Part shown: in pieces, positions 15,345 to 41,129 of the stretch
Layout of the letters: every line of letters begins with the position of its first letter
Numbering within the stretch: position 1 is the first letter of the stretch
Origin: Planctomycetota bacterium
Lineage (GTDB): Bacteria; Planctomycetota; Phycisphaerae; Phycisphaerales; UBA5793
Assembly: GCA_963205185.1 (NCBI GenBank)
Contig: CAUJHZ010000044.1
Span: 23,640 to 87,639, forward strand
Length of the DNA: 64,000 nt
Direction: 5' to 3'
Made by a program: the position numbers and the translations under genes
The notes under the pieces: model-generated
Seen by the model: only the letters and a program-made list of their open reading frames with translations
What the model was told of the DNA's origin: nothing
The model's database searches: none

Positions 15345-15553
15345 GCCGCGGCGAAGCGCCGAGAGAGGTGAGAGGAGACGGGAGAGCTGGAGAGCCGAAC
15401 TGGCTTGCTGCCTCGGCGCCTCGATGCCTTTCCCTAATGCCAAGTGCCTAATGCCTCGCCGCGATGCCTCGATGCCTCGATGCCTCGATGCCTTTCCCTA
15501 GTGCCTAGTGCCTAGCGCCTAATGCCTAATGCCAAGTGCCTAATGCCTCTCCA
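15345..15553 (-). repeat. 3' module of cassette locus 1: AGGCAY heptamer array plus a pyrimidine-rich tail
   Basis: Read on the gene strand there are about 20 tandem 7-nt units (taggcac/taggcat/gaggcat...), then ctctcacctctctcggcgcttcgccg. It is homologous to 25719..25853 and 40888..41129. Confidence 0.85.
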
Positions 15554-16933
15554 CTACTCGAACTCCCAAACCACCAACTGGCTGATGGCGCACTCGTTCT
15601 GGACGACAGCTTGGAAGAGGATGGTCTGGCCGCGGGCGACGAGGGGGACGGGGCGGGTGATGGAGGCAACGCCGTTGGCGTCGGCGACGGCGGTGCCGAT
15701 GACCGTCGGCTGATCGAGTTGCAGGGCATTCTGCTGCAGGTCGCAGCCGGGGATGCGCGTGCCGCCGCCGTGGCGGGAGTAGAGGAAGACAACCCGCGCG
15801 CCGGGCGTCACGCCAGTCACGGTGATCGTATTGGCGACTCCCGCCGTGCCCGGCGTGGGTGTGGACAGTTCCAATGTCGGGTAGACCGGCGACATCAGAA
15901 ACGCTGTGGAAGTTCCTGGATGATCGACGAAGTAGCCCGTTCCTGAGATCTGGCCCGCATCGTTGATGTCCCATGCAAACTCCGTGCGCCATCGACATTT
16001 CGCCGGCAGCAGGTCGTCGAGTTTGCGTATACCTCGTGCGGGAGCCCAGATGAAGCCGACATTGCGCATTCCCTCGCGCGTCGCCCGGCCAACGACATGG
16101 CCATGCCGATTGATCGCGTATCCAAGGGTACCGACAGTCCCTGGCGGCTTGCCGAGGTCGTACATGCGGCCGCGGAACCAGATGAATGCGAATCGACGTT
16201 CCGAGTAGAAGTCAACATCGGAGCTGCCCACGACGTAGCCTGCGTTGTTTAGGCCGCTTGCGAACGCCTGGCCAACATCTCCCGCGCGGAGCGTTCCCAG
16301 ATCCGACATTTCGCCGTTGTACCAGGTCACGGCCCGCCACCCGTGGTAAGCGGCGCTCCACGCCTGTCCGACGATCAAGCCATCCTCATTGATATCCCGG
16401 GCTTCACTTCCGTTGCCTTCGAAGTCGCCCAGATCAATCATCGCGCCGTTTGTCCAGCAGAATGCTCGACGATCTCGCACGCCTGGAATCAGCTCCGACC
16501 ATCCAACGACTTGCCCGTTGTTCGAGATCTCATTGGCTTCGACCCAGTCACCACCCAGTGACCCGATGTCCTCCATCTGGCCATCGCGCCAGAGAAAGCC
16601 GCGGCTGTTGAATCCAGTTCCGCCAAGCGGATTCGACCAACCAGTGACCCAGTCGTTGTCATTTACAGCAAACGCCTGGCTATCGGTGCCTCCCAACGTG
16701 CTCAGATCGATAGGTTCCGTTTCGATCCACAGCGTTGCATGAAAGACGTTCTCCGGGAGAAAGGCGCCGCCTACTACATGGCCATGCTCATTAATTCCGT
16801 AGCCGGCGCTATCTGATCCACCAAGGGACGGCAGAGCGAAGAAGGCGTACTCGGGCGGCTGCTGAGCACATACACCGCCCGCGCGGAACGCAAGCAACAC
16901 TGAGCCGGCGACGAGAAACATTCGATGTCCCAT
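15554..16933 (-). CDS. Secreted HAF-repeat protein with a type-A conserved C-terminal domain (paralog 1)
   Basis: Repeats of ..AF.W..G.M.DLG.LGG..S.A..IN..GQVVG. ATG 16933 is preceded by GGAGG and gives a signal peptide (MGHRMFLVAGSVLLAFRAGGVCAQQ). The C-terminus is ..TPGARVVFLYSRHGGGTRIPGCDLQQNALQLDQPTVIG..ECAISQLVVWEFE. Confidence 0.85.
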   Translation of the reverse strand: MGHRMFLVAGSVLLAFRAGGVCAQQPPEYAFFALPSLGGSDSAGYGINEHGHVVGGAFLPENVFHATLWIETEPIDLSTLGGTDSQAFAVNDNDWVTGWSNPLGGTGFNSRGFLWRDGQMEDIGSLGGDWVEANEISNNGQVVGWSELIPGVRDRRAFCWTNGAMIDLGDFEGNGSEARDINEDGLIVGQAWSAAYHGWRAVTWYNGEMSDLGTLRAGDVGQAFASGLNNAGYVVGSSDVDFYSERRFAFIWFRGRMYDLGKPPGTVGTLGYAINRHGHVVGRATREGMRNVGFIWAPARGIRKLDDLLPAKCRWRTEFAWDINDAGQISGTGYFVDHPGTSTAFLMSPVYPTLELSTPTPGTAGVANTITVTGVTPGARVVFLYSRHGGGTRIPGCDLQQNALQLDQPTVIGTAVADANGVASITRPVPLVARGQTILFQAVVQNECAISQLVVWEFE

Positions 16934-17004
16934 GATGGAACCTCCAATCGGACTTCGATGAAAGCGCCGGCGCATGCTCTAGCACTCGCCGGCGAGAACA
17001 AGAG

Positions 17005-19620
17005 TCACTGACACTGAGGACATGCCGTACCATGAGGTGTGAAGTCGCTGATGAAATACTCGTCGCTCACGTCATCATGGAACTCGTCAAAACACTTCGT
17101 CAGCAATCGAGTCCGGTATTCCTCACACACCCCATTGGCGAGAAACGTCGCGGTGTCGTAGATGAAGCTCGGCTGCGGCTGCATCCAGGTCTGTCCATAG
17201 CACGCCACGGTGAAACCGGCACTACTCAGTGCCTCGAGGACCGCCGCCATGCCGAAGGACTCGTTCTGGCCGAATTGCGCCACGCGCCAACTCGTGACGA
17301 AGTCATCCCAGGACATGCCGGGAGGATCGTTGCAGCCGTTGTCCTTGTGGAACTTGCTGAATCTGAGCAAGTTGTTGGTGTACCAGTCACTGCCATTGTC
17401 AACCTTGGGCCTCCACTCCAAGGCGACTGCGAGATTCGGCGGAGTCCACGGAGGCGGGTCGAATGGGCTGATACCCTTGAGCCGATGTGCTGCCGAAACG
17501 GCGTCATCGGGATAGTCCCAGATGGTGTGCATGTCGAAGTACATCTGGCGACCATTCACCCAGTCGGATACCTCCGAAACGAGATACCGGTGTGGGTTGT
17601 CATTCTCATATCCGTCATTGACGGCCGTTTGGCTCACCGCAGCTGAGATCATGCGCAGGGGCCGACCCGCGAGAGCCGAGCCCTCCAGCGTCGCCCACAT
17701 CTGCGCATCAAGCCAATCGAGAATTGTGGCGTTCGCCAGTTCATAGCAGGCCTGATTCTGTATTTGGCCGAACGAGAGAGGTTCGCCACAACTACCGCCG
17801 AGTTCTCCGGTACGGAAGTAGTACTGGCCGGCTCCACCAAAAGCCTCGTTGCCGAACTGCACCCAGTCGATGCAGCGCGCGTACTTATAGCCGAACTCCC
17901 GCAAGTCGCCGAGAATCAAGTCTCGCTGTGCTGTCGTCGTTGGCAAGAAGTCAAACTGCTCGCTCTCTGACCCTTCCAGCGTCGATCGCATCCAGACCAC
18001 GATCTCACGCTGCCAGTCGTCGCCGCGGGCCCAGCGCTCGATGTCTGTACGGAAGCTACATTCATCCATCTGCGGATCGAGAATCTCGTTGAGCACGTAC
18101 TCGCCTTCCGGCCAGGAGTCATTGGGCAGCGCGAGCAGGTGAAGAGCAAGGCGGACCGCCTGAGTGTGAGGGATGTCGTGGGCGGCGCTATCAGAGTACC
18201 CGGCCGCATGCAGACCGACGCGCATGCCCACGTACGTATCTTCATCCACCTCGATCGACTCAGCCCAATCGATGAGCCAGTTCCCGTTCGTGTCGTCTTC
18301 GGCGCCGGTCGCGATCTCGTACACATCTGATTCGTGGTCGTTGTCCACGTCATACGGCACGAGTTTGAAGGCCACCCAGTCGCCGCCGCTGCCGAGTTGG
18401 CCCACCCCGACGATTTCGCCGGCATCGTTGATATCGGTACAGCGCATGTTGATCATGTTGCTCGGCAGGCCGAGGCTCATCGACGTCAGGTCGATCTGCT
18501 CGCCCGTGCCGGATGCAACGCTCGTCGAAACCCAGAGATACTTGTCGCCGACGATCTCGGGGTTCGCCTGATCGTTGATCGCTTCTGGAATGAAGACTGG
18601 CGAGGCGGCCAGGCTCACGCCCGTCCACTCGTCGCCGATCTCGTCGTAGTACCAGTGGATCGTGTCACTGATCGAGTCGCTGGTGAGCAGGCCGCCGATG
18701 ATCACGCCATCGTCATTGACGTCGACGGCGAAGCCGACATCCGATCCGGTGATGCCTGTGAGGTCTTCGACCTGCCATCCTCCACTGTAGTACCAGACCA
18801 CCGCCTGATACCTCGAACTGGCGTCCTGGCGTTGGCCGACGGCAAGACTCCCTAACGGCGCGGTGTTGAGCGTGATGCCCACTGCGTTGGTTCCGCTGCC
18901 GTTTGGAAGCGCGGGAAGCGGAACAGGTTGATTTGCACTATCCCACCAGCCGACGGGAGTGCCGTTCACCGATGTTCCCACGACAACGCCCTGGTTGTTG
19001 ATGTCCTTGGCATAGCCGTCGTTGGTGCCGATCTGTGTGAGCGTGCCGGCATAGGTGCTGGTCAGCGCGAGGAAGAATGCCTTGGGGCCGGAATTGCTGC
19101 GCGTGCCGCAGATCTCCAGTTCATCGTTGATGCCCCGCAGACCGGCGTTGTCGAGAATGATGTCACCCGAGCCGTCTTCGAGCGGTCCCTGCCAGCCGTC
19201 TGTGTACATCTCGTCGTACCAGATGTAGCCGTAGTTGTTGCTGCCGTTGTTCATCGTGGCGACGACGACCCCATCATTGTTCATGTGCACGCCCGGGTCG
19301 GGCAGAAGCGTGCAACCACTGGGCAGCGGGATGCGCACGAGCACGAACGGCTTGAAGATGGGCGCGGTCATCGAGGCAACCTCTTCCGCCGCGCTGGTCG
19401 CCGAACCGGCGGCAGCCGCGGCTTCCACCCCGACTGTCGGTGCGGCCCACCTTCCCTCTGAACTGGCCGCCGAGTTGGCGTGCCACACGGTTTCACCCGC
19501 AGCCGACAGCAGGATCGTACTGGCTCCGAGCAGCGAGATGGTCGAGAATCCACCGTGAACGCGCTTGAAAGGACGTCTCAGAGGACGCCTCCTTCGAAGA
19601 AGGCGGCGACGAATGGCCAT
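17005..19620 (-). CDS. Large secreted protein: HAF-like repeats, a possible (beta/alpha)8 hydrolase-like region and a Cys-rich C-terminal module
   Basis: I chose ATG 19620 (MAIRRRLLRRRRPL..FSTISLLGASTILLSAAG signal) because the region upstream is a conserved non-coding leader. The N-terminal half has ..INN.GVVVG.. repeats, the middle has ..WVQFGNEAFGG.., and the end is ..LSSAGFTVAC..VSDEYFISDFTPHGTACPQCQ. Confidence 0.75.
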   Translation of the reverse strand: MAIRRRLLRRRRPLRRPFKRVHGGFSTISLLGASTILLSAAGETVWHANSAASSEGRWAAPTVGVEAAAAAGSATSAAEEVASMTAPIFKPFVLVRIPLPSGCTLLPDPGVHMNNDGVVVATMNNGSNNYGYIWYDEMYTDGWQGPLEDGSGDIILDNAGLRGINDELEICGTRSNSGPKAFFLALTSTYAGTLTQIGTNDGYAKDINNQGVVVGTSVNGTPVGWWDSANQPVPLPALPNGSGTNAVGITLNTAPLGSLAVGQRQDASSRYQAVVWYYSGGWQVEDLTGITGSDVGFAVDVNDDGVIIGGLLTSDSISDTIHWYYDEIGDEWTGVSLAASPVFIPEAINDQANPEIVGDKYLWVSTSVASGTGEQIDLTSMSLGLPSNMINMRCTDINDAGEIVGVGQLGSGGDWVAFKLVPYDVDNDHESDVYEIATGAEDDTNGNWLIDWAESIEVDEDTYVGMRVGLHAAGYSDSAAHDIPHTQAVRLALHLLALPNDSWPEGEYVLNEILDPQMDECSFRTDIERWARGDDWQREIVVWMRSTLEGSESEQFDFLPTTTAQRDLILGDLREFGYKYARCIDWVQFGNEAFGGAGQYYFRTGELGGSCGEPLSFGQIQNQACYELANATILDWLDAQMWATLEGSALAGRPLRMISAAVSQTAVNDGYENDNPHRYLVSEVSDWVNGRQMYFDMHTIWDYPDDAVSAAHRLKGISPFDPPPWTPPNLAVALEWRPKVDNGSDWYTNNLLRFSKFHKDNGCNDPPGMSWDDFVTSWRVAQFGQNESFGMAAVLEALSSAGFTVACYGQTWMQPQPSFIYDTATFLANGVCEEYRTRLLTKCFDEFHDDVSDEYFISDFTPHGTACPQCQ

Positions 19621-19700
19621 CGACAAGACGGCGACTCCATCTATCGAAACACCGACTGAGATTGGCGGCCGTAGCCTCTGCAACGGACGGCCCCCCAGAC

Positions 19701-20015
19701 CAATGGACGACAGCACTTCGAGACGCTGCTCCAACCTACCAGCAGACGGCCGCATCGTCGAGAGCAAAGCGATAAAGCGACACTCGATCAGGGTGGATTT
19801 CTTGCGCCGAACACGCTGTGGTTGAGTGAAAATCTGCGCACCAGCGCGCATCTCCCGCACCTTCTCGCCTTGAAATCACCGCGCGGCGAGCCACAATCGA
19901 GGCGTCGGTGGCGGACATGACGAATTGCGAACCCCGGACGTGCCGGGTACAGGGCGCCGCGAGGCGCCGGGAGATTGATTGTGAAGGTGGTGGTGACGCG
20001 AACGCTGGCTGGTGG
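19701..20015 (-). repeat. 5' module of cassette locus 1 (conserved leader, promoter region and a 35-nt copy of the 5' end of the 2-hydroxyacid dehydrogenase gene)
   Basis: It is the reverse complement of 23628..23941 with only a handful of mismatches. Positions 19981..20015 (gtgaaggtggtggtgacgcgaacgctggctggtgg) are identical to the first 35 nt of CDS 22676..23662. Confidence 0.85.
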
Positions 20016-20037
20016 GGGCGTCGCCAGCCGTGGGTCT

Positions 20038-21099
20038 TCAACCCTGTGCCGCGAGCATTTCATCGCACGCGCGGCAGACCAGATCGAGCGCGATCTCCGT
20101 CATCGGCTCGCCGCCGGTACTGATCTGCTTCTCGCGCGGGTACTCAATCTGCGCCCAGCGCGGGTCCGTCGGACCGAAGAGCGACACGATGCCCAGCCGC
20201 GGCCCCTCCGCATGGCCTGACTCCTGCGCGTCCATCGCGCTTGCCGCGGCGATGTGCCGCGTGCCGGTGTCGTTGGTCACCAGCAGTCGGGCCCGCGATG
20301 TCACATATTTCAGCGGCCCGAGCGCGATGCCGGCCTGCACGAGGTTCACCGGCTGCGATGCAGCGCTGCGGCAGATCGACTCGATCAGATCGCCTTCGCG
20401 CGGCGAGCCGTTCACGAGCACGCGCAGCCCGTGCCGCTGCGCCAGATGATCGGCCAGGCTGGCAAATCGATCAGCAGGCCAGCGCTTTTCGGCCTTGCTT
20501 GCGCCGGGATTCAATATCGCGTAGCCCGCGCGGGCCGAGACGCCGGCGCGTTCGAGGATTTCCTCTGCAGCGCGCTGCTGCTCGGGCGAAGCGCGCAGAC
20601 TCATGCGCCGATCATCTGCGGCGAGCCCGAGTGTGCGGCCGATGGCGAGGTAATAGTCGATCGCGGGTATCGGCTGCTTCCATCCACCCGGCGCCGGGCT
20701 GGGCAGCGGGTGCGTGAGCATCCAGCCGCGCGCTTCGCGGTTGTAGCCGATGCGGATGGGAATGCCCGCGAGCCGGACCGTCGCAGCGAGTCGCCAACTG
20801 TTGGGCAGCAGGATGGCCGCATCGCACCGCGCCGTCGTCAGCCGCCGCCCTTCGCGCCACGGCCCGGTGGCGCCCTCGGGCCGGCCGACGATCATCTCAT
20901 CGAGCAGACCGCCGCCGTCGAGCAGTTCATCGAGGCCGTGCCGCATGTAACCCACCAGCCGAAGGTGGCGCGACTGCGCATTGGTGCGCAGCGCGCGGAG
21001 CAGCGGCGTGGCCATCGTCGCATCGCCGACCCACGACGGCAGGATGATCAGCAGGCGCTCGAGAGCAGCCCAGTCGAGTGCGGCAGCGGCGCGACTCAT
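20038..21099 (-). CDS. Glycosyltransferase family 9 (ADP-heptose:LPS heptosyltransferase-like)
   Basis: ..LIILPSWVGDATMATPLLRALR.., ..AILNPGASKAEKRWP.. and ..LVTNDTGTRHIAAA.. are typical of the GT9 heptosyltransferase pattern. It is adjacent to gmhB. Confidence 0.85.
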   Translation of the reverse strand: MSRAAAALDWAALERLLIILPSWVGDATMATPLLRALRTNAQSRHLRLVGYMRHGLDELLDGGGLLDEMIVGRPEGATGPWREGRRLTTARCDAAILLPNSWRLAATVRLAGIPIRIGYNREARGWMLTHPLPSPAPGGWKQPIPAIDYYLAIGRTLGLAADDRRMSLRASPEQQRAAEEILERAGVSARAGYAILNPGASKAEKRWPADRFASLADHLAQRHGLRVLVNGSPREGDLIESICRSAASQPVNLVQAGIALGPLKYVTSRARLLVTNDTGTRHIAAASAMDAQESGHAEGPRLGIVSLFGPTDPRWAQIEYPREKQISTGGEPMTEIALDLVCRACDEMLAAQG

Positions 21100-21380
21100 G
21101 TGTGGGGCTCGCCCCAGAGCGTGTCCACCCCGAACTTGTGCCGGTACCAGTTCGTCGTGATCCGGCGCAGTTCCGCCGCGAAGCCGATCGCCACGATGCG
21201 CTCGGCGGCGACCGTCGCCGTCACGCTTGATTCATCTGCATCGATCTGCACAATGGCCAGCCCCTGCCGCTCGGCCAGGGCCTGCGCCGTTGCGATTACC
21301 ATCGTGCGGATGTTCTCGTGCTGGAGCGGCGTGCCCTCGAGCGCTCGCAGCGTCACGCGGGTTGTCGGGGTGGTGCTCAT
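21096..21380 (-). CDS. Small hypothetical protein (94 aa)
   Basis: ATG 21380 (MSTTPTTRVTLRALEG..). It overlaps the GT9 start by 4 nt and lies 30 nt downstream of gmhB. I recognise no motif. Confidence 0.5.
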   Translation of the reverse strand: MSTTPTTRVTLRALEGTPLQHENIRTMVIATAQALAERQGLAIVQIDADESSVTATVAAERIVAIGFAAELRRITTNWYRHKFGVDTLWGEPHT

Positions 21381-21409
21381 TGCAGAGTGCGCAGCACGGC
21401 TTGAGATCA

Positions 21410-22633
21410 TCACCGGCGGAGATTGATCGCAATGAAGACGACCACGCCGAGTTGGGCCACGATGGTGGCGCCGATCCACGGCGTGGCGACGGCGGGTTCG
21501 AGATAGATGCCCAGCAGCACCGCGAGAATCACCAGCCCCAGCGAAGTGAGCGAGCCCAGCAGCAGCGGCGGAGTGAATTCGCGCTGGCTGTGCCGCCACG
21601 AGCGCACCTCGCCCAGAAGTTCGGTCAGCAGGCGCTCCGCGTGCTCCGGCGGCGCTTCACGATGTGGTTGCGGCCGTTCGATGCCCTGCACGCGCAGCGG
21701 GATGTGGCGGAACGGATCGCGCCGCGGCGCCGCGGGCGTCGGCGAATCGGGCGTTTCTGCATCTTCCTGCGCTGGCGCGACCGGCTCGTCGGTTTCGACC
21801 GCATCTGCCGCTTGCGTCGACTCCTCGATCTGCTCAACCTCGGCTTGCGTCGCAAATGCGTCCTCGACGGCATCCGATTCGATCTCGACCGCCACGGCGG
21901 TTTCGACGTCGACTGTGGCTTGCGGGCGCGCGGCAGGCGCCGGCGCTGCGATGATGCGCTCATCGGGCCCGTGGTCGGCAGCGATGGCAGCGCCGGCCCG
22001 GCCCGTCAGCGCCTCGGCGTGGCGCGCTTCGTGCGCGACCTTGGGGGATACGACCACCGTCGGCGCCGGTGGGATGATCTGCCGCGGGCGAACGCGGTTC
22101 TGCGCGATGATCGCCGCGGCCTCTGCGAGCGAACCGGCCTGGAAGTCGGCCTTGGTATTAACGCTCGTCTTGCGCGTGATGAGAATGGTCTGGCACCCGG
22201 CGGCCCGGCCGGCCTCGATGTCGCGCTCGCCGTCGCCGACCATCCAGCACTCTTTCAGGTCGAGATCAAGGCTGCGCGCCGCCTCGAGCAGCATGCCCGG
22301 CTGCGGCTTGCGCCACGGGTGTTCTTTCGAATACTCGGCAACCGTCCCCTCCGGGTGAAACGGGCAGTAGTAGAACCGATCAATAATCGCCCCAGCCGAG
22401 TCGTGCACCATCTGCGCGATGCGCTCATGCACCGCATCGACATCGCGCTCGGTGTAGCGCCCCCGCGCCACGCCGCCCTGGTTGCTCACGACGATGATGC
22501 GATAGCCCAGCTGCCGCAGTGAGCCGATGGCGTGAGCTGCGCCGCGGATGAGCCGCACCTCATCGGGGTTTCCGAGGTCGCCGTCGTTGAGAATGATCGT
22601 GTTATCACGATCGAGGAAGATCGCCCGTTTCAC
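21410..22633 (-). CDS. gmhB: D,D-heptose 1,7-bisphosphate phosphatase (HAD-IIIA) fused to an acidic low-complexity linker and a C-terminal membrane anchor
   Basis: N-terminus MKRAIFLDRDNTII..VVSNQGGVARG..YCPFHPEG..RKPQPGML..MVGDGERDIEAG. Residues ~190-340 are rich in Ala, Glu and Pro. The end has two hydrophobic helices (LLLGSLTSLGLVILAVLLGIYL; IGATIVAQLGVVVFIAINL). Confidence 0.8.
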   Translation of the reverse strand: MKRAIFLDRDNTIILNDGDLGNPDEVRLIRGAAHAIGSLRQLGYRIIVVSNQGGVARGRYTERDVDAVHERIAQMVHDSAGAIIDRFYYCPFHPEGTVAEYSKEHPWRKPQPGMLLEAARSLDLDLKECWMVGDGERDIEAGRAAGCQTILITRKTSVNTKADFQAGSLAEAAAIIAQNRVRPRQIIPPAPTVVVSPKVAHEARHAEALTGRAGAAIAADHGPDERIIAAPAPAARPQATVDVETAVAVEIESDAVEDAFATQAEVEQIEESTQAADAVETDEPVAPAQEDAETPDSPTPAAPRRDPFRHIPLRVQGIERPQPHREAPPEHAERLLTELLGEVRSWRHSQREFTPPLLLGSLTSLGLVILAVLLGIYLEPAVATPWIGATIVAQLGVVVFIAINLRR

Positions 22634-22675
22634 GCGGCAAGTGTAGGAGCCACAGCCACTCAGGCGAAAACCACT

Positions 22676-23662
22676 TCACCGACGCTCCACCCGGTTAATC
22701 GGATTCGGTGGGGTTTCACCCTTCAGCACGGCGATCACATTCCGCTGCGCCATCCGCGCCATCTCGGGCCGCGCGCTGCGCGAAGCGCTGCCCACGTGCG
22801 GCATCAGGCACGTATTGCCCAGCTCGCCAAGCCCCGGCGCCAGGCGCGGCTCATCCTCGTACACATCCAGCCCCGCACCCGCAATCTTCCCCGACGCCAG
22901 CGCCTCCACCAGGGCCCGCTCGTCTACTACAGCCCCTCGTGAGGTGTTGATCAGATACGCCGTCGGCTTCATCAGCCCCAGCTCGCGCCGCCCGATCAGA
23001 TGCCGCGTCTCGCGCGTCAGCGGCGTGTGCAGCGAGACGTAGTCCGCCTCGCGCAGCCCCGTCTCCAGCTCCACCCGCTGCGCGCCCAGCGGCGGCCGCT
23101 CAAACTCCTCGTGCGCCGACCTTGCCACATACAACACGCGCATGCCCCAGCCCAGCGAGCGCATCGCCGTGGCATAGCCGATGCGCCCCGCGCCGACGAT
23201 GAGCAGCGTGCGCCCCTCAAAGTCGCCGCCGATGAGGTGCCTCGGGTCGTAGCCGCGCCTCGTGCTGAACTCGCCGCTGCGCACTTCGCGCTCGCCCTCG
23301 TGCAGCCGCCGCGCCACGGCAAGCATGAGCGCCCAGGCCATGTCGGCGGTCGGGGCCGTCACGGCGTCGGGTGTGTTGGTGAGCCAGATGCCGCGCCGCG
23401 TCGCCTCGGGCACATCCATGTTGTCAAAGCCCACGGCGTAGTTCGCCACCACCTTCAGATTCGGCCCCGCCGCGTCAAACAGTTCCGCGTTCACCGCTTC
23501 GTTGAACTGGCACAGCAGTCCATCCGCGCCCGCGACGCGTTCCAGCAGCTCGCCGCGATCCGGCCCGATGCCCGGTGGCGCGACCCACAGGTCCGTGATG
23601 CCCGGCTCGCGCTCGAGCAACTCCACTCCACCAGCCAGCGTTCGCGTCACCACCACCTTCAC
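22676..23662 (-). CDS. Glyoxylate/hydroxypyruvate reductase-like D-2-hydroxyacid dehydrogenase
   Basis: ..[68 protein letters not shown] prefer the GTG 23662 start (VKVVVTRTLAGG), which is the typical N-terminus of this family. ATG 23725 is the alternative. Confidence 0.85.
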   Translation of the reverse strand: MKVVVTRTLAGGVELLEREPGITDLWVAPPGIGPDRGELLERVAGADGLLCQFNEAVNAELFDAAGPNLKVVANYAVGFDNMDVPEATRRGIWLTNTPDAVTAPTADMAWALMLAVARRLHEGEREVRSGEFSTRRGYDPRHLIGGDFEGRTLLIVGAGRIGYATAMRSLGWGMRVLYVARSAHEEFERPPLGAQRVELETGLREADYVSLHTPLTRETRHLIGRRELGLMKPTAYLINTSRGAVVDERALVEALASGKIAGAGLDVYEDEPRLAPGLGELGNTCLMPHVGSASRSARPEMARMAQRNVIAVLKGETPPNPINRVERR

Positions 23663-23985
23663 AATCCATCTCCCGGCGCCTCGCGGCGCCCTGTACCCGG
23701 CACGTCCGGGGTTCGATTTCATCATGTCCGCTACCGACGCCTCGATTGTGGCTCGCCGCCCGGTGATTTCAAGGCGAGAAGGTGCGGGAGATGCGCGCTG
23801 GTGCGCAGATTCTCACTCAACCACAGCGTGCTCGGCACGAGAAATCCACCCTGATCGAGTGTCGCTTTGGCGCTTTGTTCTCGACGATGCGGTCGTCTGC
23901 TGGTACGTTGGAGCAGCGTCTCGCAGTGCTGCCCTCCATTGCCGGCGCGGCCGCTGGTCGCAATCGTGCCGCAAGAAAGAAGGCC
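23628..23985 (+). repeat. 5' module of cassette locus 2 (promoter region plus conserved non-coding leader)
   Basis: 23628..23941 is an inverted copy of 19701..20015. 23792..23985 is a direct copy of 38955..39148, with about 10 differences by manual alignment. Confidence 0.85.
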
Positions 23986-24300
23986 ATGCCAGACAATCGT
24001 ACCGGTCCCGTTTTCCTGCCCAACGCGCTTGCCAGTGCTGGCTTCGCAACCGCTTGTCACAGCGCGCTCCAGTTCGACTCCGGAACGGTAGACGATCCTA
24101 GTCGACACCAGGTTGAGGGCTTGCGTGCAACGCAACTGCTTGATCCTGAGACCATGACGGAACGCGATTATCTGTTCACGCCGGTTTCCGACTGGTACCT
24201 CGACCAGTACGCCGCGCCGGCGCACAAGATCCCAAACTTCGTGGTGCATCCTAGCGCCTGTGATCCTGAGCACACGTGTCCGGAGTGTCCGCAGCAGTGA
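23986..24300 (+). CDS. Small Cys-rich protein (104 aa), cassette gene 1 (short form)
   Basis: The ATG is preceded by AGAAAGAAGG. Compared with the paralog 39149..39463, 11 codons differ only synonymously and 8 change the amino acid. It shares ALxSAGFxxAC..VSDxY..CPxCxQ with the C-terminus of the 871-aa protein 17005..19620. Confidence 0.6.
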   Translation: MPDNRTGPVFLPNALASAGFATACHSALQFDSGTVDDPSRHQVEGLRATQLLDPETMTERDYLFTPVSDWYLDQYAAPAHKIPNFVVHPSACDPEHTCPECPQQ

Positions 24301-24356
24301 TGTTGAGATCTCGGTGGGAGGGCCGCGCCCTCCCACCGTTCGACTGACGAGGTGAC

Positions 24357-25718
24357 ATGATGAACCCGACCCACCGAATCTTCGTTTTGGCAGTGGTCTT
24401 GTGTGGCGATTGTGCCTTCAGCGAGGACTTCAGTTATGCGGTCTTCAACCTACCGGGACTAAACCCAGATGAACTGCATGGCGCATCGTACGCGGTCAAC
24501 GAGAGAGGCTACGTTTGTGGTTCGAGTGTGTCTCTGATCGGCGCTGTTCATGGCGCGATTTGGGATCCCGCCGGTAACGTGGTTGATCTGGGTGCGATCG
24601 GAGGCAACAGCAGCGAGGCGCACGATCTAAATGACCTTGGCCAGGCAGTGGGCTGGACTGGGCGCGGCCCGGACGATGGCAGGGCGTTTCTGTGGCAAGA
24701 TGGGGAGATGGTTGACCTTGGAACACTTGGTGGCCAATTCAGCTCAGCCCGAGGAGTGAACAATTCTAAGCAGATTGTCGGGAAGTCGGGGACCAGCGGT
24801 GGATCAAGCAGTGCGTTCCTATGGGAGGATGGAGAGATGCGAGCTCTGCCAGGACTCGCTGAAGGACAGTCGACTCAGGCGTATGCCATCAATGATGCCA
24901 GCCGCGTCGTCGGGTACTCGTGGCCACCGCAATCCGGTCACATCGCCGTTTACTGGGAGAACGAACAAGTATTTGAATTGCCCCGATGGATTGGACCCAG
25001 CGATGCGTTCGCCGTAAATGATCTCGGCCATATCGTCGGACAAGCCGAATACTCGGCGTCCAAATATCACGCGGCCGCTTGGGTGGACGGTCAAATCCAC
25101 GACCTCCACCGCGCCAGCCTCGGGCGGGACAGTTCTGCCTGGGGTATCAACAATGTCGGCCAGGTCGTCGGGTGGCTCGGCGACGGCCGAACGCTGTTTG
25201 TCCGCCAGGCATTTCTATGGGAACAGCAGGGCGGCATGCGAACGCTCGACAGCATGGTGCCGCCTCGGTTGCGCAAGAACTGGTCTCTCACCGTGGCGCG
25301 CGACATCAACGAAGCGGGACAGATCGCCGCGTATGGCATTGAGGCCGGTCATCCCCTGATCCTCGTACCGTTCCTTGTGAGTCCGGTCCATCCGACGATG
25401 GAGATGGCGGCGCCTTCACCGGGTATCGCGGGTACGAACAATACCATCAGCATCACCGGCGCGACCCCCGGCGCGCGCGTCGTTTTTCTCTACTCCCGCC
25501 ACGGCGGCGGCACCCGCATCCCCGGCTGCGACCTCCAGCAGAACGCGCTGCAATTAGATCAGCCGACGGTGATCGGTACCGCCATCGCCGACTCCAACGG
25601 CGTTGCATCAATCACCCGCAACGTCCCGCTCATCGTCCGCGGCCAGACCATCCTCTTCCAAGCCCTCGACCAGAACGAGTGCGCGATCAGCCAGTTGGTG
25701 GTGCATGAGTTTGAGTGA
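24357..25718 (+). CDS. Secreted HAF-repeat protein with a type-A C-terminal domain (paralog 2)
   Basis: It has a signal peptide (MMNPTHRIFVLAVVLCGDCAFS) and repeats such as RAFLWQDGEMVDLGTLGG..GVNNSKQIVG. It ends ..TPGARVVFLYSRHGGGTRIPGCDLQQNALQLDQPTVIG..ECAISQLVVHEFE. Confidence 0.85.
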   Translation: MMNPTHRIFVLAVVLCGDCAFSEDFSYAVFNLPGLNPDELHGASYAVNERGYVCGSSVSLIGAVHGAIWDPAGNVVDLGAIGGNSSEAHDLNDLGQAVGWTGRGPDDGRAFLWQDGEMVDLGTLGGQFSSARGVNNSKQIVGKSGTSGGSSSAFLWEDGEMRALPGLAEGQSTQAYAINDASRVVGYSWPPQSGHIAVYWENEQVFELPRWIGPSDAFAVNDLGHIVGQAEYSASKYHAAAWVDGQIHDLHRASLGRDSSAWGINNVGQVVGWLGDGRTLFVRQAFLWEQQGGMRTLDSMVPPRLRKNWSLTVARDINEAGQIAAYGIEAGHPLILVPFLVSPVHPTMEMAAPSPGIAGTNNTISITGATPGARVVFLYSRHGGGTRIPGCDLQQNALQLDQPTVIGTAIADSNGVASITRNVPLIVRGQTILFQALDQNECAISQLVVHEFE

Positions 25719-25853
25719 AAGATGCAAGGGACCAGGCACTAGGCACTTGGCAATCGGGGAAGGCATCGAGGCAGCAAGGGCGAGCTCTCCTTTCTCCTTT
25801 CTCCTTTCTCTTCTCACTCTTCTCGGCGCTGCGCCGCCACCTCTCTCGGCGCT
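25719..25853 (+). repeat. 3' module of cassette locus 2: short AGGCAY heptamer array plus a pyrimidine-rich tail
   Basis: aagatgcaagggaccaggcactaggcacttggcaat..ggcatcgaggcagcaaggg.. then ctcctttctcctttctcctttctcttctcac and ctcggcgctgcgccgcc units. This copy has about 8 heptamers. Confidence 0.85.
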
Positions 25854-26486
25854 TCACCGTGGTGCGATCGCTTCGCGGCGCATCTGGTCGATGGCGGCGC
25901 GGGCCCGGGATTCGTCGTTGAGGCGCTGGGGGGCGTCGATGCGGATGATGCCGGCTTTGGCGCGGATGTCGATGCCGCTCGGATCGACGCCCACAAGCAC
26001 GGCCTCGTCGATCTCGACGCCGTTGAAGTGGCGGCTCATGGCCATGAGATCGGCGCGATGCTCCGTGTTCATCCAGCGGCACAGGGCCGGCTCGACTTGC
26101 GCGAGGGGATTGGGCTCCATGAGATCCTCACCGTCGAACACCTGGCCGCGCCACTTGGCTGCGTCGATGTTCATGCGGTAGAAGGCGATGTCGGTCGGCT
26201 TGCCGTGGTAGATGCGCCAGCGATCGGCCTCGTGGCTTTCGCTCTCGACGGCCTCGACGGTGGCGAGCAGTTCGAGCACATCGGGCACATCGGAGGGGAT
26301 GAAGAGGACGGTGGAGTCGGCGGTGAGGATGTCAGCGCTGCCGCAGATGATCGGCTCGCCGCGCGGACCGAGGACGTAGCGCACGCCCGAGTAGAAGCCG
26401 TCGCGGTCGAGCGTGGCGACGGTGTGGCGGCGGAGGAAGTCGCGCGCATCTGAGGCGGTGCAGGTTGGTTCTTCGCCGGCGGTCAT
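25854..26486 (-). CDS. DUF2470 / HugZ-like (pyridoxamine 5'-phosphate oxidase-related) protein
   Basis: The N-terminal half resembles the PNPOx-like split barrel (..ARDFLRRHTVATL..G..YVLG..GEPII). The C-terminal ..MNTEHRADLMAMSRHFNGVEIDEAVLVGVDPSGIDI.. resembles DUF2470. The call rests on motifs only. Confidence 0.65.
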   Translation of the reverse strand: MTAGEEPTCTASDARDFLRRHTVATLDRDGFYSGVRYVLGPRGEPIICGSADILTADSTVLFIPSDVPDVLELLATVEAVESESHEADRWRIYHGKPTDIAFYRMNIDAAKWRGQVFDGEDLMEPNPLAQVEPALCRWMNTEHRADLMAMSRHFNGVEIDEAVLVGVDPSGIDIRAKAGIIRIDAPQRLNDESRARAAIDQMRREAIAPR

Positions 26487-26853: not shown

Positions 26854-26864
26854 GCGGCCGAGGC

Positions 26865-35301: not shown

Positions 35302-36282
35302 TTACGGAATCTGTCCGACGGTGCTGGCCTCGCAGGGGCTGGCGATGGTGACCAGCTGGAGGTAGCCGCCGCACGCGGCGTTGTTGGCATTGCCATTCAC
35401 GCTGCCCGTGCCGCTGCCGGTGGGAACCGTATTGACCAGGCGGATGTTCTGGGTGCCCAGGCCGAGTTGCGTGCCCTGGCAGGGACCGCTGGGAACGACG
35501 AACGAACCGGTGTTGCCGGCAAAGACGATGCCCTGCTGCTTGTTGGGCTGGGCGCCATCCCAGGCGACGTTGACGGTGCCGGGGCAGGTGCCGGTGACGG
35601 TGCAGGTGTATCCGCCGCCGCCCTGGCCGAGGCCGGTGAGCGACATGTCGTCGTAGTAGGTGGAGGTGCCGAGGGTGTAGAGATCGACGTTGGCGATCTC
35701 AATGGCGCCGCCGCGAATGAAGAGCTGACCCGTTGACACTTCGACGTTGTTGTAGTACGTCGTGATGGTGTCGTTGTCGACGTCGAGTTCGCAGCGGATT
35801 TCCGCCCACTGATCAAACGCGATGGACGGGAAGTTGGTCTCGGTGCGGAAGTCGTCGGCCACAGTGCCGGGGCCGCCGCCTGCGTCGCCTTCGAAGTCAA
35901 ACTGCAGTTCGATGCACCACTGGTAGGGGCCGCCGTGGGCATATTCGTTCTGCACGATGAAGTAGGTGTCAGAGACGAACTGGGAGACGGGGATGTAGAC
36001 CCACGCCGTGAAGGTGCCGGCGCCGGAGGTCAGGCCCGTGAAGGGATGGACGGCGTCGTCGGCGCCTTCGCTCAGGATCGATTTGGTGCCGCCGTGCGCA
36101 TGCGCAGTGCTGCACGAGCCGCAGACAGACTGAGTGTCATCCCAGCCGGTCCAGCCGCCCACGTTGTACAGCACCTGTCCGTCGGTGTAGGACTCGAAGT
36201 CATCGCTCCAGTCCTGCGCGAAGGCAGCGCTGCCCAGGGACATCGCCGCGGCGAGCCCGAATCCGGTGAGTTTGCTCTTCAT
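35302..36282 (-). CDS. Secreted protein: LamG/jelly-roll-like N-terminal domain plus a type-B conserved C-terminal domain
   Basis: Signal MKSKLTGFGLAAAMSLGSAAFAQ, then DWSDDFESYTDGQ.. The C-terminus is ..CPGTVNVAWDGAQPNKQQGIVFAGNTGS..PCQGTQLGLGTQ..ACGGYLQLVTIASPCEASTVGQIP. AAAGGAG precedes the ATG. Confidence 0.8.
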   Translation of the reverse strand: MKSKLTGFGLAAAMSLGSAAFAQDWSDDFESYTDGQVLYNVGGWTGWDDTQSVCGSCSTAHAHGGTKSILSEGADDAVHPFTGLTSGAGTFTAWVYIPVSQFVSDTYFIVQNEYAHGGPYQWCIELQFDFEGDAGGGPGTVADDFRTETNFPSIAFDQWAEIRCELDVDNDTITTYYNNVEVSTGQLFIRGGAIEIANVDLYTLGTSTYYDDMSLTGLGQGGGGYTCTVTGTCPGTVNVAWDGAQPNKQQGIVFAGNTGSFVVPSGPCQGTQLGLGTQNIRLVNTVPTGSGTGSVNGNANNAACGGYLQLVTIASPCEASTVGQIP

Positions 36283-37131: not shown

Positions 37132-38130
37132 ATGGCAAAGTCAACGAAGTTCTTCCTTGGTGCAGCAGCGATGGCCCTCTCGGCTTCCGCTGCGGCAAAC
37201 GCTCAGATCGCTTCGGTCGCCCCGTCGACCAGCGGTCAGAACAGCATCATCGCTCAGGATGAGTACATGTGGGACGACGGCAGCACCGAGAACCTTCTCG
37301 GCTGGACGGCCGGCGGCACCATGGCCTGGATTCAGTGGTTCGACGCCGCCGGCGGCAGCGACACCATCAGCGAAATCCGCATCATCAACGGCTCGGCGCT
37401 GTATCCGGGTTACGGCAACGGCAACGGTTCGCCCGTTTCCGTCGGCATCTGGAGCGATCCCAACGGCGACGGCGAGCCCAGTGACTCCGTCCTGCTCACC
37501 AGCGTAAACACCACCGTCCAGAACATCGACACGGACACCTACCAGACCGTCGCCATCCCCGGCGGCCAGGCGGTGAATGGTCGGTTCTTCATCGGTGCCT
37601 GGATTGCCCACAACGCCGGTCAGTTCGTCGCTCCGATGGACCAGAACTCGGGCAACATCATCGCCGGTCGCGCCTACGTGTTCGGCAACTACAACGGCTA
37701 CGGCGGTTCGTTCAATCCCAACATGCCCGGCGACACGCTCAACAACATCCTCTATGAGATGACGAGCATCGGCTTCCCGACCAACTTCTGCGTCCGCGCT
37801 TCCAGCGGCGGCGGCGGCGGCTACAGCCTCACCGTCAGCGGCAACTGCCCCGGCACCGTCAACGTCGCCTGGGCCGGCGCTCAGCCCAACAAGCAGCAGG
37901 GCATCGTCTTCGCCGCCAACACCGGCAGCTACACGATCCCCGGCGGCCCCTGCGCCGGCACGCAGCTCGGTCTGGGCACCCAGCAGCTCCGCCTCGTCAA
38001 CACGGTTCCCACCGGCAACGGTTCGGGCAACGTGAACGGCAACGCGAGCAGCGGCGCTTGCGGTGGCTACCTCCAGCTGGTCACCATTTCGAGCCCCTGC
38101 GAAACCAGCAACGTGGATCAGATCCCGTAA
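37132..38130 (+). CDS. Secreted protein: beta-sandwich N-terminal domain plus a type-B conserved C-terminal domain
   Basis: Signal MAKSTKFFLGAAAMALSASAAANAQ. The N-terminal domain has ..DEYMWDDGSTENLLGW..GIWSDPNGDGEPSD.. The C-terminus is ..CPGTVNVAWAGAQPNKQQGIVFAANTGS..PCAGTQLGLGTQ..ACGGYLQLVTISSPCETSNVDQIP. GGAG precedes the ATG. Confidence 0.8.
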   Translation: MAKSTKFFLGAAAMALSASAAANAQIASVAPSTSGQNSIIAQDEYMWDDGSTENLLGWTAGGTMAWIQWFDAAGGSDTISEIRIINGSALYPGYGNGNGSPVSVGIWSDPNGDGEPSDSVLLTSVNTTVQNIDTDTYQTVAIPGGQAVNGRFFIGAWIAHNAGQFVAPMDQNSGNIIAGRAYVFGNYNGYGGSFNPNMPGDTLNNILYEMTSIGFPTNFCVRASSGGGGGYSLTVSGNCPGTVNVAWAGAQPNKQQGIVFAANTGSYTIPGGPCAGTQLGLGTQQLRLVNTVPTGNGSGNVNGNASSGACGGYLQLVTISSPCETSNVDQIP

Positions 38131-38411: not shown

Positions 38412-38798
38412 ATGAAGTACTCTTGGATCATTGCCGCAGCACTGCTTCTCGTCGGCCGCTCGGCGCTCGCCCAGTGCAACGATTACCAGCTGTCGATCAC
38501 CGGCACCTGCCCCGGCACGGTGACCGTGTTCTGGGGCGGCGCGCCGCCGGCCAGCACCCAGGCGCTGATCATCGGCAACACGCTCGGCTCGTTCACCATT
38601 CCGCCTGGGGCGTGCTTCGGCACCGTCATCTGCATCCAGGGCTCGGTCGGCATGGTGGGCACGCCCTTCTCGACCGGCACGGCGGGCGTGGGATCGATCA
38701 GCGGCACCGCCTCGGCCGGCGCGTGCGGCCGCTACCTCATCGCCGTCACCAACTTCGGCTCGCCGTGCCAGGTGAGCAATCCCGTACAGATTCCATAG
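38412..38798 (+). CDS. Stand-alone type-B C-terminal-domain protein (signal peptide plus domain only, 128 aa)
   Basis: ATG 38412 is preceded by GAAGGAG. MKYSWIIAAALLLVGRSALAQ is followed by ..CPGTVTVFWGGAPP..GSFTIPPGACFGT..ACGRYLIAVTNFGSPCQVSNPVQIP. Confidence 0.7.
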   Translation: MKYSWIIAAALLLVGRSALAQCNDYQLSITGTCPGTVTVFWGGAPPASTQALIIGNTLGSFTIPPGACFGTVICIQGSVGMVGTPFSTGTAGVGSISGTASAGACGRYLIAVTNFGSPCQVSNPVQIP

Positions 38799-38954: not shown

Positions 38955-39148
38955 TGCGCGCTGGTGCGCAGATTCTCACTCAACCACAGCGTGTTCGGCA
39001 CGAGAAATCCACCCTGATCGAGTGTCGCTTTATCGCTTTGTTCTCGACGATGCGGTCGTCTGCTGGTAGGTTGGAGCAGCGTCTCGCAGTGCTGTCGTCC
39101 ATTGCCGGCGCGACTGGTGGTCGCAATCGTGCCGCAAGAGAGAAGGCC
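38955..39148 (+). repeat. 5' module of cassette locus 3 (conserved non-coding leader)
   Basis: It is a direct copy of 23792..23985. It shares tgcgcgctggtgcgcagattctcactcaaccacagcgtg..ccattg with all three loci. Confidence 0.85.
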
Positions 39149-39463
39149 ATGCCAAACAATCGTACCAGTCCCGTTTTCCTGCCCAACGCGCTTGCCAGTG
39201 CTGGCTTCGCAACCGCTTGTCACAGCGCGCTCCAGTTCGACTCCGGAACGGTGGACGATCCTAGTCGACACCAGGTTGAGGGCTTGCGTGCGACGCAACT
39301 GATCGATCCTGAGAACATGACGGGGCGCCAGTATCTGTTCACTCCAGTCTCCGACTGGTACCTCGACCAGTACGCCGCGCCGGCGCACAAGATCGCTAAC
39401 TTCGTCGTGCATCCGAACGCGTGCGATCCCGAGCACACCTGTCCGGAGTGTCCGCAGCAGTGA
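39149..39463 (+). CDS. Small Cys-rich protein (104 aa), cassette gene 1 (short form), paralog of 23986..24300
   Basis: The ATG is preceded by AGAGAGAAGG. It ends ..NFVVHPNACDPEHTCPECPQQ. It is the only credible part of the 413-aa ORF 38222..39463. Confidence 0.6.
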   Translation: MPNNRTSPVFLPNALASAGFATACHSALQFDSGTVDDPSRHQVEGLRATQLIDPENMTGRQYLFTPVSDWYLDQYAAPAHKIANFVVHPNACDPEHTCPECPQQ

Positions 39464-39522
39464 TTTGGCCGCAGGTGGGCGGAGCGCCTCTCCGCCCACC
39501 ACTTCATTTGGAGATGCCATAC

Positions 39523-40887
39523 ATGCCACGCATCGCTACATTGCCTTTGTGCTTGACCGGCGTAATGACCATCTTCGGACCCGCCGGTGCCGGCGCCCAG
39601 CAGTACCCATATGCGGTTTTCGATCTGCAGGTCCTCAACCCGGAGGCCCCGCACTCGGCCACTCGGGCAATTGCTCAAAACGGGTGCGTCGTTGGCGGCT
39701 CCGACACCGGCCCCGAGTTGCACGCAGTCTTGTGGCCGGCGTTCGGCGGTGCGGTAGATCTCGGCACGCTTTCCGGCGATGACTCCGAGGCGCGAGGCGT
39801 GAACGGCGCTGTGGATATCGTTGGGTCGAGTGGAGACACATTCGGGCCACGTCGCGCATTCCTCTATCGCGACGGTCACATGATCGACCTCGGCACTCTT
39901 GGAGGCGTCGTCAGCGTCGCGAATGACATCAACGAATCCAGTCAGATCGTCGGGTACTCAACGACCGAGGTCACAACTTTGGCCTTCGTCTGGGAAGGTG
40001 GGGCCATGCGGGCCCTCCGTGGACTCGACGAGAGTCAGTCAACGCAGGCGTTTGCCATCAATAATGCCGGCCGTGTTGTCGGGTACTCGTGGCCACCGCA
40101 ATCCGGTCACATCGCCGTTTACTGGGAGAACGAACAGATTGTTGAATTGCCGCGATGGATCGGTCCCAGTGACGCGTTCGCCGTGAATGACCTTGGCCAC
40201 ATCGTTGGGCAAGCCGAATACTCGGCGTCCAAGTATCACGCGGCCGCGTGGGTGGACGGCCAGATCTACGACCTCCACCGCGCCAGCCTCGGGCGCGACA
40301 GTTCCGCCTGGGGCATCAATAATGTCGGCCAGGTCGTCGGGTGGCTCGGTGACGGTCGCACGTTGTTCGTTCGCCAGGCATTTCTCTGGGAACAGCAAGG
40401 CGGCATGCGAACGCTCGACAGCTTGGCGCCACCTCGCTTGCGGAAGAACTGGTCGATCACCATGGCGCACGACATCAACGATGCGGGACAGATCGCCGCG
40501 TATGGCGTCGAGGCTGGTCATCCCCTGATCCTCGTGCCGTTCCTTGTGAGTCCAGTCAATCCGACGATGGAGATGGCGGCGCCATCACCGGGTGTCGCGG
40601 GCACGAGCAACACCATCAGTATCACCGGCGCGACCCCCGGCGCGCGCGTCGTTTTTCTCTACTCCCGCCGCGGCGGTGGCACGCGCATCCCCGGTTGCGA
40701 CTTGCAGCAGAACGCGCTGCAACTCGATCAGCCGACGGTGATTGGCAGCGCCATCGCCGACGCCAACGGCGTGGCCACCATCACCCGCAACGTCCCCCTC
40801 ATCGCCCGCGGCCAGACCATCCTCTTCCAGGCCGTGGTGCAGAACGAGTGCGCCATCAGTCAGTTGGTGGTGCATGAGTTTGAGTGA
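39523..40887 (+). CDS. Secreted HAF-repeat protein with a type-A C-terminal domain (paralog 3)
   Basis: ATG 39523 lies 9-10 nt after GGAG, and ATG 39514 is the alternative. Signal MPRIATLPLCLTGVMTIFGPAGAGAQQ. It has HAF repeats and ends ..ECAISQLVVHEFE. Confidence 0.85.
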   Translation: MPRIATLPLCLTGVMTIFGPAGAGAQQYPYAVFDLQVLNPEAPHSATRAIAQNGCVVGGSDTGPELHAVLWPAFGGAVDLGTLSGDDSEARGVNGAVDIVGSSGDTFGPRRAFLYRDGHMIDLGTLGGVVSVANDINESSQIVGYSTTEVTTLAFVWEGGAMRALRGLDESQSTQAFAINNAGRVVGYSWPPQSGHIAVYWENEQIVELPRWIGPSDAFAVNDLGHIVGQAEYSASKYHAAAWVDGQIYDLHRASLGRDSSAWGINNVGQVVGWLGDGRTLFVRQAFLWEQQGGMRTLDSLAPPRLRKNWSITMAHDINDAGQIAAYGVEAGHPLILVPFLVSPVNPTMEMAAPSPGVAGTSNTISITGATPGARVVFLYSRRGGGTRIPGCDLQQNALQLDQPTVIGSAIADANGVATITRNVPLIARGQTILFQAVVQNECAISQLVVHEFE

Positions 40888-41129
40888 AAGATGCAAGGGA
40901 CCAGGCACTTGGCTCGAGGCACTAGGCACTAGGCATTAGGCATTAGGGAAAGGCATCGAGGCATCAAGGCATCGCGGAGAAGCATCAGGCACTTGGCACT
41001 TGGCAATGGGGAGGGCAGCGAGGCAGCAAGGGCGAGGTCTCCGTTCTCCTTTCTCTTCTCACCTCTCTCGGCGCTGCGCCGCCGCCAATCTCGGCGCTGC
41101 GCCGCCGCCAATCTCGGCGCTTCGCCGTG
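40888..41129 (+). repeat. 3' module of cassette locus 3: long AGGCAY heptamer array, a pyrimidine-rich tail and a duplicated 23-nt unit
   Basis: About 18 units (caggcac ttggctc gaggcac taggcac taggcat taggcat ...), then ctccgttctcctttctcttctcac, then ctcggcgctgcgccgccgccaat repeated about 2.5 times. Confidence 0.85.

Follow-up and report, generated by a model that had tools for sequence, protein, structure and literature searches.

The babA, babB and babC genes of Helicobacter pylori are paralogues with near-identical 5′ and 3′ regions around a divergent middle, and intragenomic homologous recombination between them makes chimeric genes and moves regulatory 5′ parts from one locus to another (PMC4552749). 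Here we analyse three two-gene cassettes, designated L1, L2 and L3, in a 64-kb chromosomal segment (the window; ~65% GC) of a Planctomycetota bacterium of the Phycisphaerales lineage UBA5793 (contig CAUJHZ010000044.1). The window carries housekeeping genes for NADH dehydrogenase, enolase, glutamate dehydrogenase and phosphoglucose isomerase. Each cassette, L1 on the minus strand and L2 and L3 on the plus strand, is composed of a leader, gene 1, a hairpin, gene 2 encoding a HAF-repeat protein, and a 3′ heptamer array; a repeat search recovered the coordinates and the common order that a first-pass annotation had assigned to the three loci. Using the gene 2 C-terminal domain as query and one genome per species, we found 60 loci, nearly all of them in Phycisphaerales metagenome-assembled genomes (MAGs; two of these MAGs are labelled Vicinamibacteraceae and one Planctomycetaceae), with at least 11–17 copies per well-sampled genome. 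We consider it probable that the cassettes represent a large, lineage-specific family of two-gene operons whose conserved ends result from family-wide constraint combined with recombination between paralogues.

Among known systems, the bab paralogues are the closest counterpart of this family. As in bab, conserved 5′ and 3′ parts enclose a divergent middle among paralogues, and the window contains a chimeric pair (L2/L3) together with a leader that appears to have been copied between loci. Unlike the Hop porin-like Bab proteins, however, the products described here combine a HAF-repeat propeller with an Ig-like C-terminal domain, and the cassette comprises two genes in an operon, along with a hairpin and an array of heptamers on its 3′ side. 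The copy number of 11–17 or more per genome also sets the family apart, as do the lack of a phase-variable repeat in the coding 5′ end and the free-living, environmental Phycisphaerales hosts. Exchange between the copies is deduced here from sequence patterns.

In the pilE/pilS system of Neisseria and the msp2 system of Anaplasma, a variable region is bracketed by conserved sequence common to many copies, and the Neisseria pil loci have conserved repeats downstream as well. The conserved brackets of the cassettes and the truncated copies in related MAGs resemble these systems. The window, however, shows no single expression site with promoterless silent copies: its three copies are full length and have the same leader, orphan fragments are present only in another MAG, and the divergence corresponds to infrequent events. 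None of the window genes scanned encodes a recombinase, invertase, transposase or reverse transcriptase. The cassettes accordingly differ from invertible elements and shufflons, the inverted repeat in the window being ~315 nt of ordinary homology, and from diversity-generating retroelements, given that their variable part is N-terminal and their 3′ end constant.

Mosaic divergence of L2 and L3 and the shared leaders

L2 consists of a leader (23792–23985), gene 1 (23986–24300), a hairpin in the gap between the genes (24312–24338), gene 2 (24357–25718) and a 3′ array (25719–25853). The corresponding parts of L3 span 38955–39148, 39149–39463, 39474–39500, 39514–40887 and 40888–41129. Identity between the two cassettes is ~95% through the leader and gene 1, falls to 42–60% from the gene 1 stop to about codon 170 of gene 2, and then returns to ~90%. 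The best two-breakpoint model places the boundaries at 24302 and 24865, with an identity of 0.52 inside and 0.91 outside (χ² 373, against a maximum of 22 among 200 permutations), and the enclosed tract takes in the hairpin, the signal peptide and the first ~170 codons of gene 2. In agreement with this, the synonymous divergence (dS) between L2 and L3 has reached saturation over the first 160–200 codons of gene 2 and is 0.2–0.5 afterwards, whereas that of L1 against L2/L3 is saturated up to about codon 390 and 0.3–0.4 over the last ~80 codons.

The two N-termini also have different relatives. That of L2 is nearest to the PLA1 loci L039 and L018 (56–58% amino acid identity), and that of L3 to L062, L035 and L007; L3 is not among the six best N-terminal matches of L2, the weakest of which are at 41–44%. 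Because N-termini with different nearest relatives are joined to middle parts that are 92% identical, the segment appears to have been replaced rather than simply to have evolved fast, and the pattern supports replacement of 24302–24865 in one of the two cassettes. The uneven divergence proposed in the first-pass annotation is thus borne out as statistically significant, mosaic and phylogenetically incongruent. Chimeric structure is apparent both in the L2/L3 breakpoints and in a copy of the L2 upstream region found at L1.

The leaders were also correctly described as near-identical. The core at 19701–19850 (minus strand) corresponds to 23792–23941 and 38955–39104 on the plus strand, with 12, 6 and 6 pairwise mismatches per 150 nt, and at no site where the three leaders differ does the unique variant belong to L3. 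The window contains exactly three copies of the fully conserved 28-mer GAAATCCACCCTGATCGAGTGTCGCTTT, where none is expected by chance, and TGGTAGGTT lies at 23903, inside the L2 leader. Leader divergence of 4–8% compares with a proportion of synonymous differences (pS) of 0.24–0.31 in the most strongly conserved part of the coding sequence (Fisher p 2e-4 to 2e-7), and the genes behind the leaders are old paralogues; gene 1 of L1 is ~72% identical at the nucleotide level to its counterparts in other species.

L1 and L2 have a further 165 nt in common upstream of the leader (19851–20015 on the minus strand and 23628–23791 on the plus strand), including 88 nt at 99% identity, so that 19701–20015 and 23628–23941 form an inverted repeat of ~315 nt whose arms are 3.6 kb apart. 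The upstream region of L2 overlaps the true 5′ end of an intact 2-hydroxyacid dehydrogenase gene (22676–23725, minus strand), the start of which is duplicated upstream of L1. As L1 holds a fragment of a gene that is intact beside L2, the arrangement points to copying from the L2 side to the L1 side. Between the inverted repeats (20016–23627) lie genes for a GT9 heptosyltransferase-like protein, a HAD phosphatase and the 2-hydroxyacid dehydrogenase. Recombination across the repeats would invert this segment and leave the dehydrogenase gene intact, because its 5′ end belongs to the repeat.

Further observations concern the leader itself. The 5′ boundary of the L2 leader is at GCGCGCTGGT, and the 5′ boundary of cassette homology (23792–23803 and 38955–38966) reads GCGCGCTGGTGC, which contains GCTGGTG; a second such motif, GCTGGTA, follows ~103 nt downstream. 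GCTGGTG resembles the Escherichia coli Chi octamer, GCTGGTGG, probably by coincidence. As a structured RNA or riboswitch the leader had no Rfam match and folded no better than shuffled sequences (z −0.53). It is open and in frame with gene 1, yet essentially every substitution alters an amino acid, and we rejected a coding role. Scans for sigma-70 promoters and terminators gave nothing convincing. A possible extracytoplasmic function (ECF)-like pattern, GAAAYC-N16-CGYTT, in the invariant 28-mer matches the three leaders only. Genes for ECF-type sigma factors are present at 13202–13972 and 29590–30213 (both minus strand), each followed by unannotated genes (12557–13177; 28895–29593 and 27284–28891) that could encode anti-sigma partners; no connection between them and the cassettes emerged.

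The near-identity of the leaders could alternatively reflect recent transposition, a segment of ~103–113 nt resembling a miniature inverted-repeat transposable element (MITE) having entered the same target site independently at each locus. Related locus L039 aligns to the leader only from GCGCGCTGGT and is without ~103 nt, which are flanked in the window by a GCTGGT direct repeat, and nothing in the 60 related loci matches the central 113-nt segment; the 28-mer was likewise not found in a scan of a metagenome collection. The segment, however, has no convincing terminal inverted repeats and no transposase, and its mere three copies in 64 kb are all at cassettes. Homology between loci runs past it on both sides and, in the case of L1 and L2, reaches into the neighbouring gene, which transposition would not explain. 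We therefore regard insertion of a mobile element as improbable.

Family-wide constraint on gene 2, the 3′ arrays and the gene 1 module

The signal-peptide-bearing gene 2 proteins of L1 (459 residues; 15554–16933, minus strand), L2 (453 residues) and L3 (457 residues) all match the HAF family model TIGR02913 (E-values 1e-39 to 1e-48), scoring 133–161 bits against a curated cut-off of 22.65 bits, with four to six HAF repeats of ~39 residues each. Their length is almost always 450–470 residues across the family. Other than in the HAF (TIGR02913/DUF3466) family as described, these proteins end in a β-sandwich of ~110 residues that matches no Pfam or NCBIfam model. This C-terminal domain, Ig-like and encoded at 15557–15907 in L1, 25365–25715 in L2 and 40534–40884 in L3, has seven strands in the predicted model (mean predicted local distance difference test score, pLDDT, 82). 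Scans of gene 2 against Pfam and NCBIfam yielded only HAF/DUF3466 and weak, chance-level matches, with no sorting-signal model, and no specific relative was found in the Protein Data Bank (PDB; best E-value 1.2e-3).

In public data, a profile search with the C-terminal domain returned 1391 cluster representatives. The domain is always terminal, mostly in proteins of 450–490 residues, and is also found on Chlam_PMP/β-helix, LVIVD and Ig-like passengers. Its terminal position on such varied passengers is what would be expected of a sorting or anchoring domain, a role we consider plausible, as was the earlier description of this end as export-related. The C-terminal domain (CTD) of type IX secretion substrates is a known C-terminal sorting or anchoring domain. 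The two have in common a β-sandwich of ~100 residues, a position at the extreme C-terminus and many unrelated extracellular passengers, but no CTD model came up in the Pfam and NCBIfam scans, the structural search gave no specific match, and no secretion genes were identified.

The last ~95 codons of gene 2 had been reported as ~90% identical in all three loci. This value stands for L2 and L3 (90%), whereas L1 is 80–81% identical to them over 348 nt and reaches 88% only over the last 85 codons. Within the window these 85 codons are 88–90% identical, and copies from other species are 85–91% identical to them at the nucleotide level. The same codon is used at identical residues of this stretch at a frequency of 0.68 between genomes and 0.73 within other MAGs; in the window the frequency is 0.75 when L1 is compared with L2/L3 and 0.83 when L2 is compared with L3. 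In the bodies of the genes the value is 0.41–0.47, and 0.53 is expected from background codon usage. Such cross-species identity and codon sharing indicate that the 3′ coding end is conserved family-wide, synonymous sites included. Among 40 C-terminal ends, 26 have their nearest neighbour in the same genome; for the bodies the figure is 19 of 40, and 9.8 are expected by chance. We thus suggest that conservation of the 3′ coding end is mainly due to family-wide constraint, with a modest excess of within-genome homogenisation. An origin of this end in local gene conversion is not supported, as copies from other species are equally similar.

GC content at third codon positions (GC3) is 0.87 in the last 85 codons of gene 2 and 0.69 in the bodies. 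The cassette bodies (16001–20000 and 24001–26000) have a GC content of 0.59–0.62, below that of the surrounding genes, and their GC3 of 0.69 compares with ~0.83 there. These contrasts could reflect GC-biased conversion or different selection on codon use.

The 3′ arrays are composed of (A/T)GGCA(C/T)T heptamers and AGGCATCG octamers, followed by a CT-rich tract and then by CTCGGCGCTKCGCC units. The array of L1 (15345–15553, minus strand) contains AGGCAYT heptamers, AGGCATCG octamers, the CT-rich tract and one CTCGGCGCTTCGCC unit, and that of L3 includes a 23-nt tandem repeat in 2.7 copies (41066–41127). Only three sites in the window carry such arrays, all of them at cassettes. Counting heptamer arrays of at least three units in 633 kb, comprising the window and related loci, we identified 30, of which 24, from six genomes, lie no more than 200 nt past a recognised family stop codon and on the same strand. 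Stops were recognised by a family-motif filter; of the remaining six arrays, at least three (L029, L036 and L054) are also preceded by a family stop, one that escaped the filter. As terminators or structured RNA the arrays were rejected (fold z 0.3–1.1; L1, 0.27), as was a role of the heptamer as a Chi-like recombination hotspot, since it is not enriched outside cassettes. Rfam searches identified two tRNAs only in the window and no match at E ≤ 1 across L3. Heptamer arrays following family stops are found across species.

In ~20 of 23 related loci a GC-rich hairpin lies between gene 1 and gene 2, its structure kept and its sequence variable. It occupies 16966–16993 (minus strand) in L1, and the stem of L3 differs in sequence from that of L2 with pairing maintained. 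A second element, of ~55 nt, spans the start of the small gene 1 and its ribosome-binding site (23960–24021 in L2, including ATGCCAGACAATCGTACCGGTCCCGTTTTC). This junction element is conserved at the nucleotide level in UBA5793 loci, being 89–94% identical to sequences that lie 30 nt past gene 2-type stops, start downstream family genes, or are located without an ATG in 5′ untranslated regions; it had no match in the metagenome scan.

Long and short forms of gene 1 and the wider family

Gene 1 of L1 (17005–19620, minus strand) encodes 871 residues, comprising a signal-like N-terminus, a β-propeller, an α/β domain and a Cys-rich C-terminal module, whereas gene 1 of L2 and L3 encodes 104. A C-terminal module common to both forms had been proposed. 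Direct comparison of L1 and L2 is weak in this respect (BLASTP E-value 0.01 over 13 residues), but the relationship is established through an intermediate, the long gene 1 of L039, whose terminal 89 residues are 82% identical to the small gene 1 of L3, and through a single profile built from both forms, which covers the family. On this evidence the 104-residue gene 1 of L2 and L3 is the C-terminal module of the long form, retained, and not another gene. The eight-fold length difference, read earlier as part of the variable core, is instead accounted for by a 5′ deletion of gene 1 in L2 and L3. The ratio of nonsynonymous to synonymous divergence (dN/dS) of the short form is 0.10–0.16, both against a truncated copy on Logan contig L001 and against L039, indicating that the remnant is under purifying selection.

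Homologues of L1 gene 1 lie directly upstream of gene 2 in ~14 loci, and the long form is the commonest in this position. By profile search the C-terminal module precedes gene 2 in ~27 loci, in open reading frames of 76–1046 residues, and ~14 loci with sufficient upstream sequence are without it. The 5′ end of L1 gene 1 is 88–95% identical to that of L039, the proteins being 33% identical elsewhere. Together with the last ~85 codons of gene 2 and the heptamer array, the gene 1 module is a part of the cassette on which constraint is family-wide.

In the predicted model of long gene 1 (pLDDT 78), residues 90–425 form a β-propeller similar to PknD-sensor and lectin propellers, with weak DUF3466 matches, and the propeller dominated the fold search. 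Residues 465–810 form an α/β domain of alternating strands and helices with invariant G590, N591, E592, H698 and E735. Glycoside hydrolases of clan GH-A are (β/α)8 barrels in which an Asn-Glu pair follows strand 4 and strand 7 carries a Glu. With its invariant N591-E592 and E735, the α/β domain may resemble these enzymes, although no sequence or fold match confirms it.

Among the related loci, many contigs break within the gene 2 C-terminal domain. An orphan fragment at 6001–6240 of L057 (identical to L005) consists of only the last ~80 codons of gene 2 and the usual 3′ flank, and in a 98-residue protein (P0018) a signal peptide is joined straight to the last ~40 residues. At 4600–4780 of L018 a repeat element, which also constitutes the 3′ flank of cassettes L007, L011 and L060, cuts gene 1 to ~43 codons. 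No synteny with related loci was found for the flanking housekeeping neighbours.

A second paralogous family of signal-peptide proteins is encoded in the window at 35302–36282 (minus strand), 37132–38130 and 38413–38798 (both plus strand). Its members have varied N-termini and a common Cys-containing C-terminal domain of ~105 residues ending in QIP (inverted repeats of 82–91% nucleotide identity), and in other MAGs too they adjoin HAF cassettes (L035, L038, L046, L041 and L061). We rejected a relationship of this domain to that of gene 2 (hhalign probability 1.3%). Elsewhere in the window, 3737–4075 contains three to four copies of a 53–102-nt intergenic repeat including CCGAGCCCCGACCGTGAGGGAGGG; similar sequence in the 3′ flank of UBA5793 locus L049 suggests that it may be a dispersed element of the clade resembling repetitive extragenic palindromes. 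Two adjacent paralogues without a Pfam match (7840–8688 and 8685–9557, plus strand) have a 77-nt stretch in common that is 74% identical and encodes a Cys-x2-Cys ... Cys-Pro-Glu-Cys-Gly motif.

Origin and significance of the conserved ends

On the basis of these comparisons, L2 and L3 would go back to the duplication of a cassette in which gene 1 already lacked its first ~770 codons. Later, the hairpin and the first ~170 codons of gene 2 would have been swapped in one of the two, with another family member as donor. L1 would be an old paralogue with gene 1 intact, its leader and promoter region having been overwritten by the L2 copy located 3.6 kb away in inverted orientation. We infer that homologous recombination between paralogues took place in the source genome, and the divergence levels indicate that such events were infrequent. 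The proposal in the first-pass annotation that gene conversion or cassette exchange shaped the conserved flanks is therefore supported for the leader and the L2/L3 chimera. By contrast, the coding end of gene 2, the array behind it and the module of gene 1 characterise the family as a whole and are not the outcome of recent conversion. The gene 1 product is predicted to be secreted and to combine the β-propeller with an α/β, possibly hydrolase, domain and the small Cys-rich module. The products of the family are likely variable secreted or surface-exposed binding proteins with a constant C-terminal domain that would act in sorting or anchoring.

Several points weigh against this interpretation. 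Recombination is deduced from patterns, with direction and timing uncertain, and no donor turned up for the segment replaced in L2 or L3. The sequence comes from a MAG-like contig of 180 kb, and the copies of this genome covered by the comparison are the three in the window. The low divergence of the leaders could also stem from strong purifying selection on a regulatory function; L039 is the only related locus that aligns to part of the leader, and the 103 nt missing there could be a deletion in that locus rather than a gain in the window. The 88–95% identity of the gene 1 5′ end to L039 could be due to transfer between lineages rather than constraint; the housekeeping yardstick, a single gene and the only one comparable, is ~70% identical to its PLA1 counterpart. 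A hydrolase role of gene 1 has no Pfam or PDB match behind it, and the functions are predictions.

Programmed variation would assign the leader, junction element, 3′ end and arrays the role of cis recombination signals, with the cassettes or the 3.6-kb segment switched often so that a surface protein varies, in the manner of pilE/pilS, msp2 or invertible promoters. The ~315-nt inverted repeat, with its 88 nt at 99% identity, does bracket 20016–23627, non-coding and synonymous positions are conserved across species, and related MAGs contain orphan 3′ fragments and internally deleted copies (L057/L005, P0018) along with the many contig breaks inside the C-terminal domain. Such breaks, however, are expected of any multi-copy family. 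The three complete copies of the window, each with a leader, show none of the asymmetry of an expression site and silent copies, the scanned genes supply no recombinase, invertase or reverse transcriptase, and the L2/L3 synonymous divergence of 0.2–0.5 corresponds to rare, old events. We see no indication of programmed switching and judge it to be unlikely.

Somewhat less probable still is an origin without recombination, in which purifying selection kept the ends and fast or positive selection drove the cores apart after old duplications. It would accommodate the conservation that the last codons of gene 2, the heptamer arrays and the module of gene 1 show across species, and the moderate within-genome excess of nearest neighbours (26 of 40 against 19 of 40). 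It is contradicted by the sharp steps in identity, by the grouping of the L2 and L3 N-termini with different members when the rest is 92% identical, and by the neighbouring-gene fragment duplicated upstream of L1. An assembly or binning artefact, whether through collapsed or duplicated repeats or a chimeric contig, is highly improbable: the family does break assemblies in related MAGs, but the copies differ by 4–50% along their length, and each has unique flanks in its own coherent housekeeping context.

A literature search for the architecture of HAF propeller plus C-terminal domain found no published work, and neither the family nor its two-gene layout and conserved non-coding elements seem to have been described. 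Among the nucleotide features that are conserved yet unexplained, three stand out: the arrays of heptamers, the junction element and the constraint on synonymous sites. The junction element is common to species whose one comparable housekeeping gene is only ~70% identical. We raise, as a tentative suggestion with little weight, that the junction element, the synonymous conservation and the strand-specific arrays are cis signals of dedicated cassette shuffling or of post-transcriptional control; if true, a shuffling system based on such signals would be a new mechanism of bacterial diversification without a known recombinase. The analysis also distinguishes recent copying from family-wide constraint, two causes of "conserved ends" that repeat-based scans easily confuse. 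It defines what appears to be an undescribed and highly expanded Phycisphaerales family with a modular layout, which would evolve partly by exchange between paralogues, a pattern that resembles the adhesin families of pathogens and yet is found in free-living bacteria.

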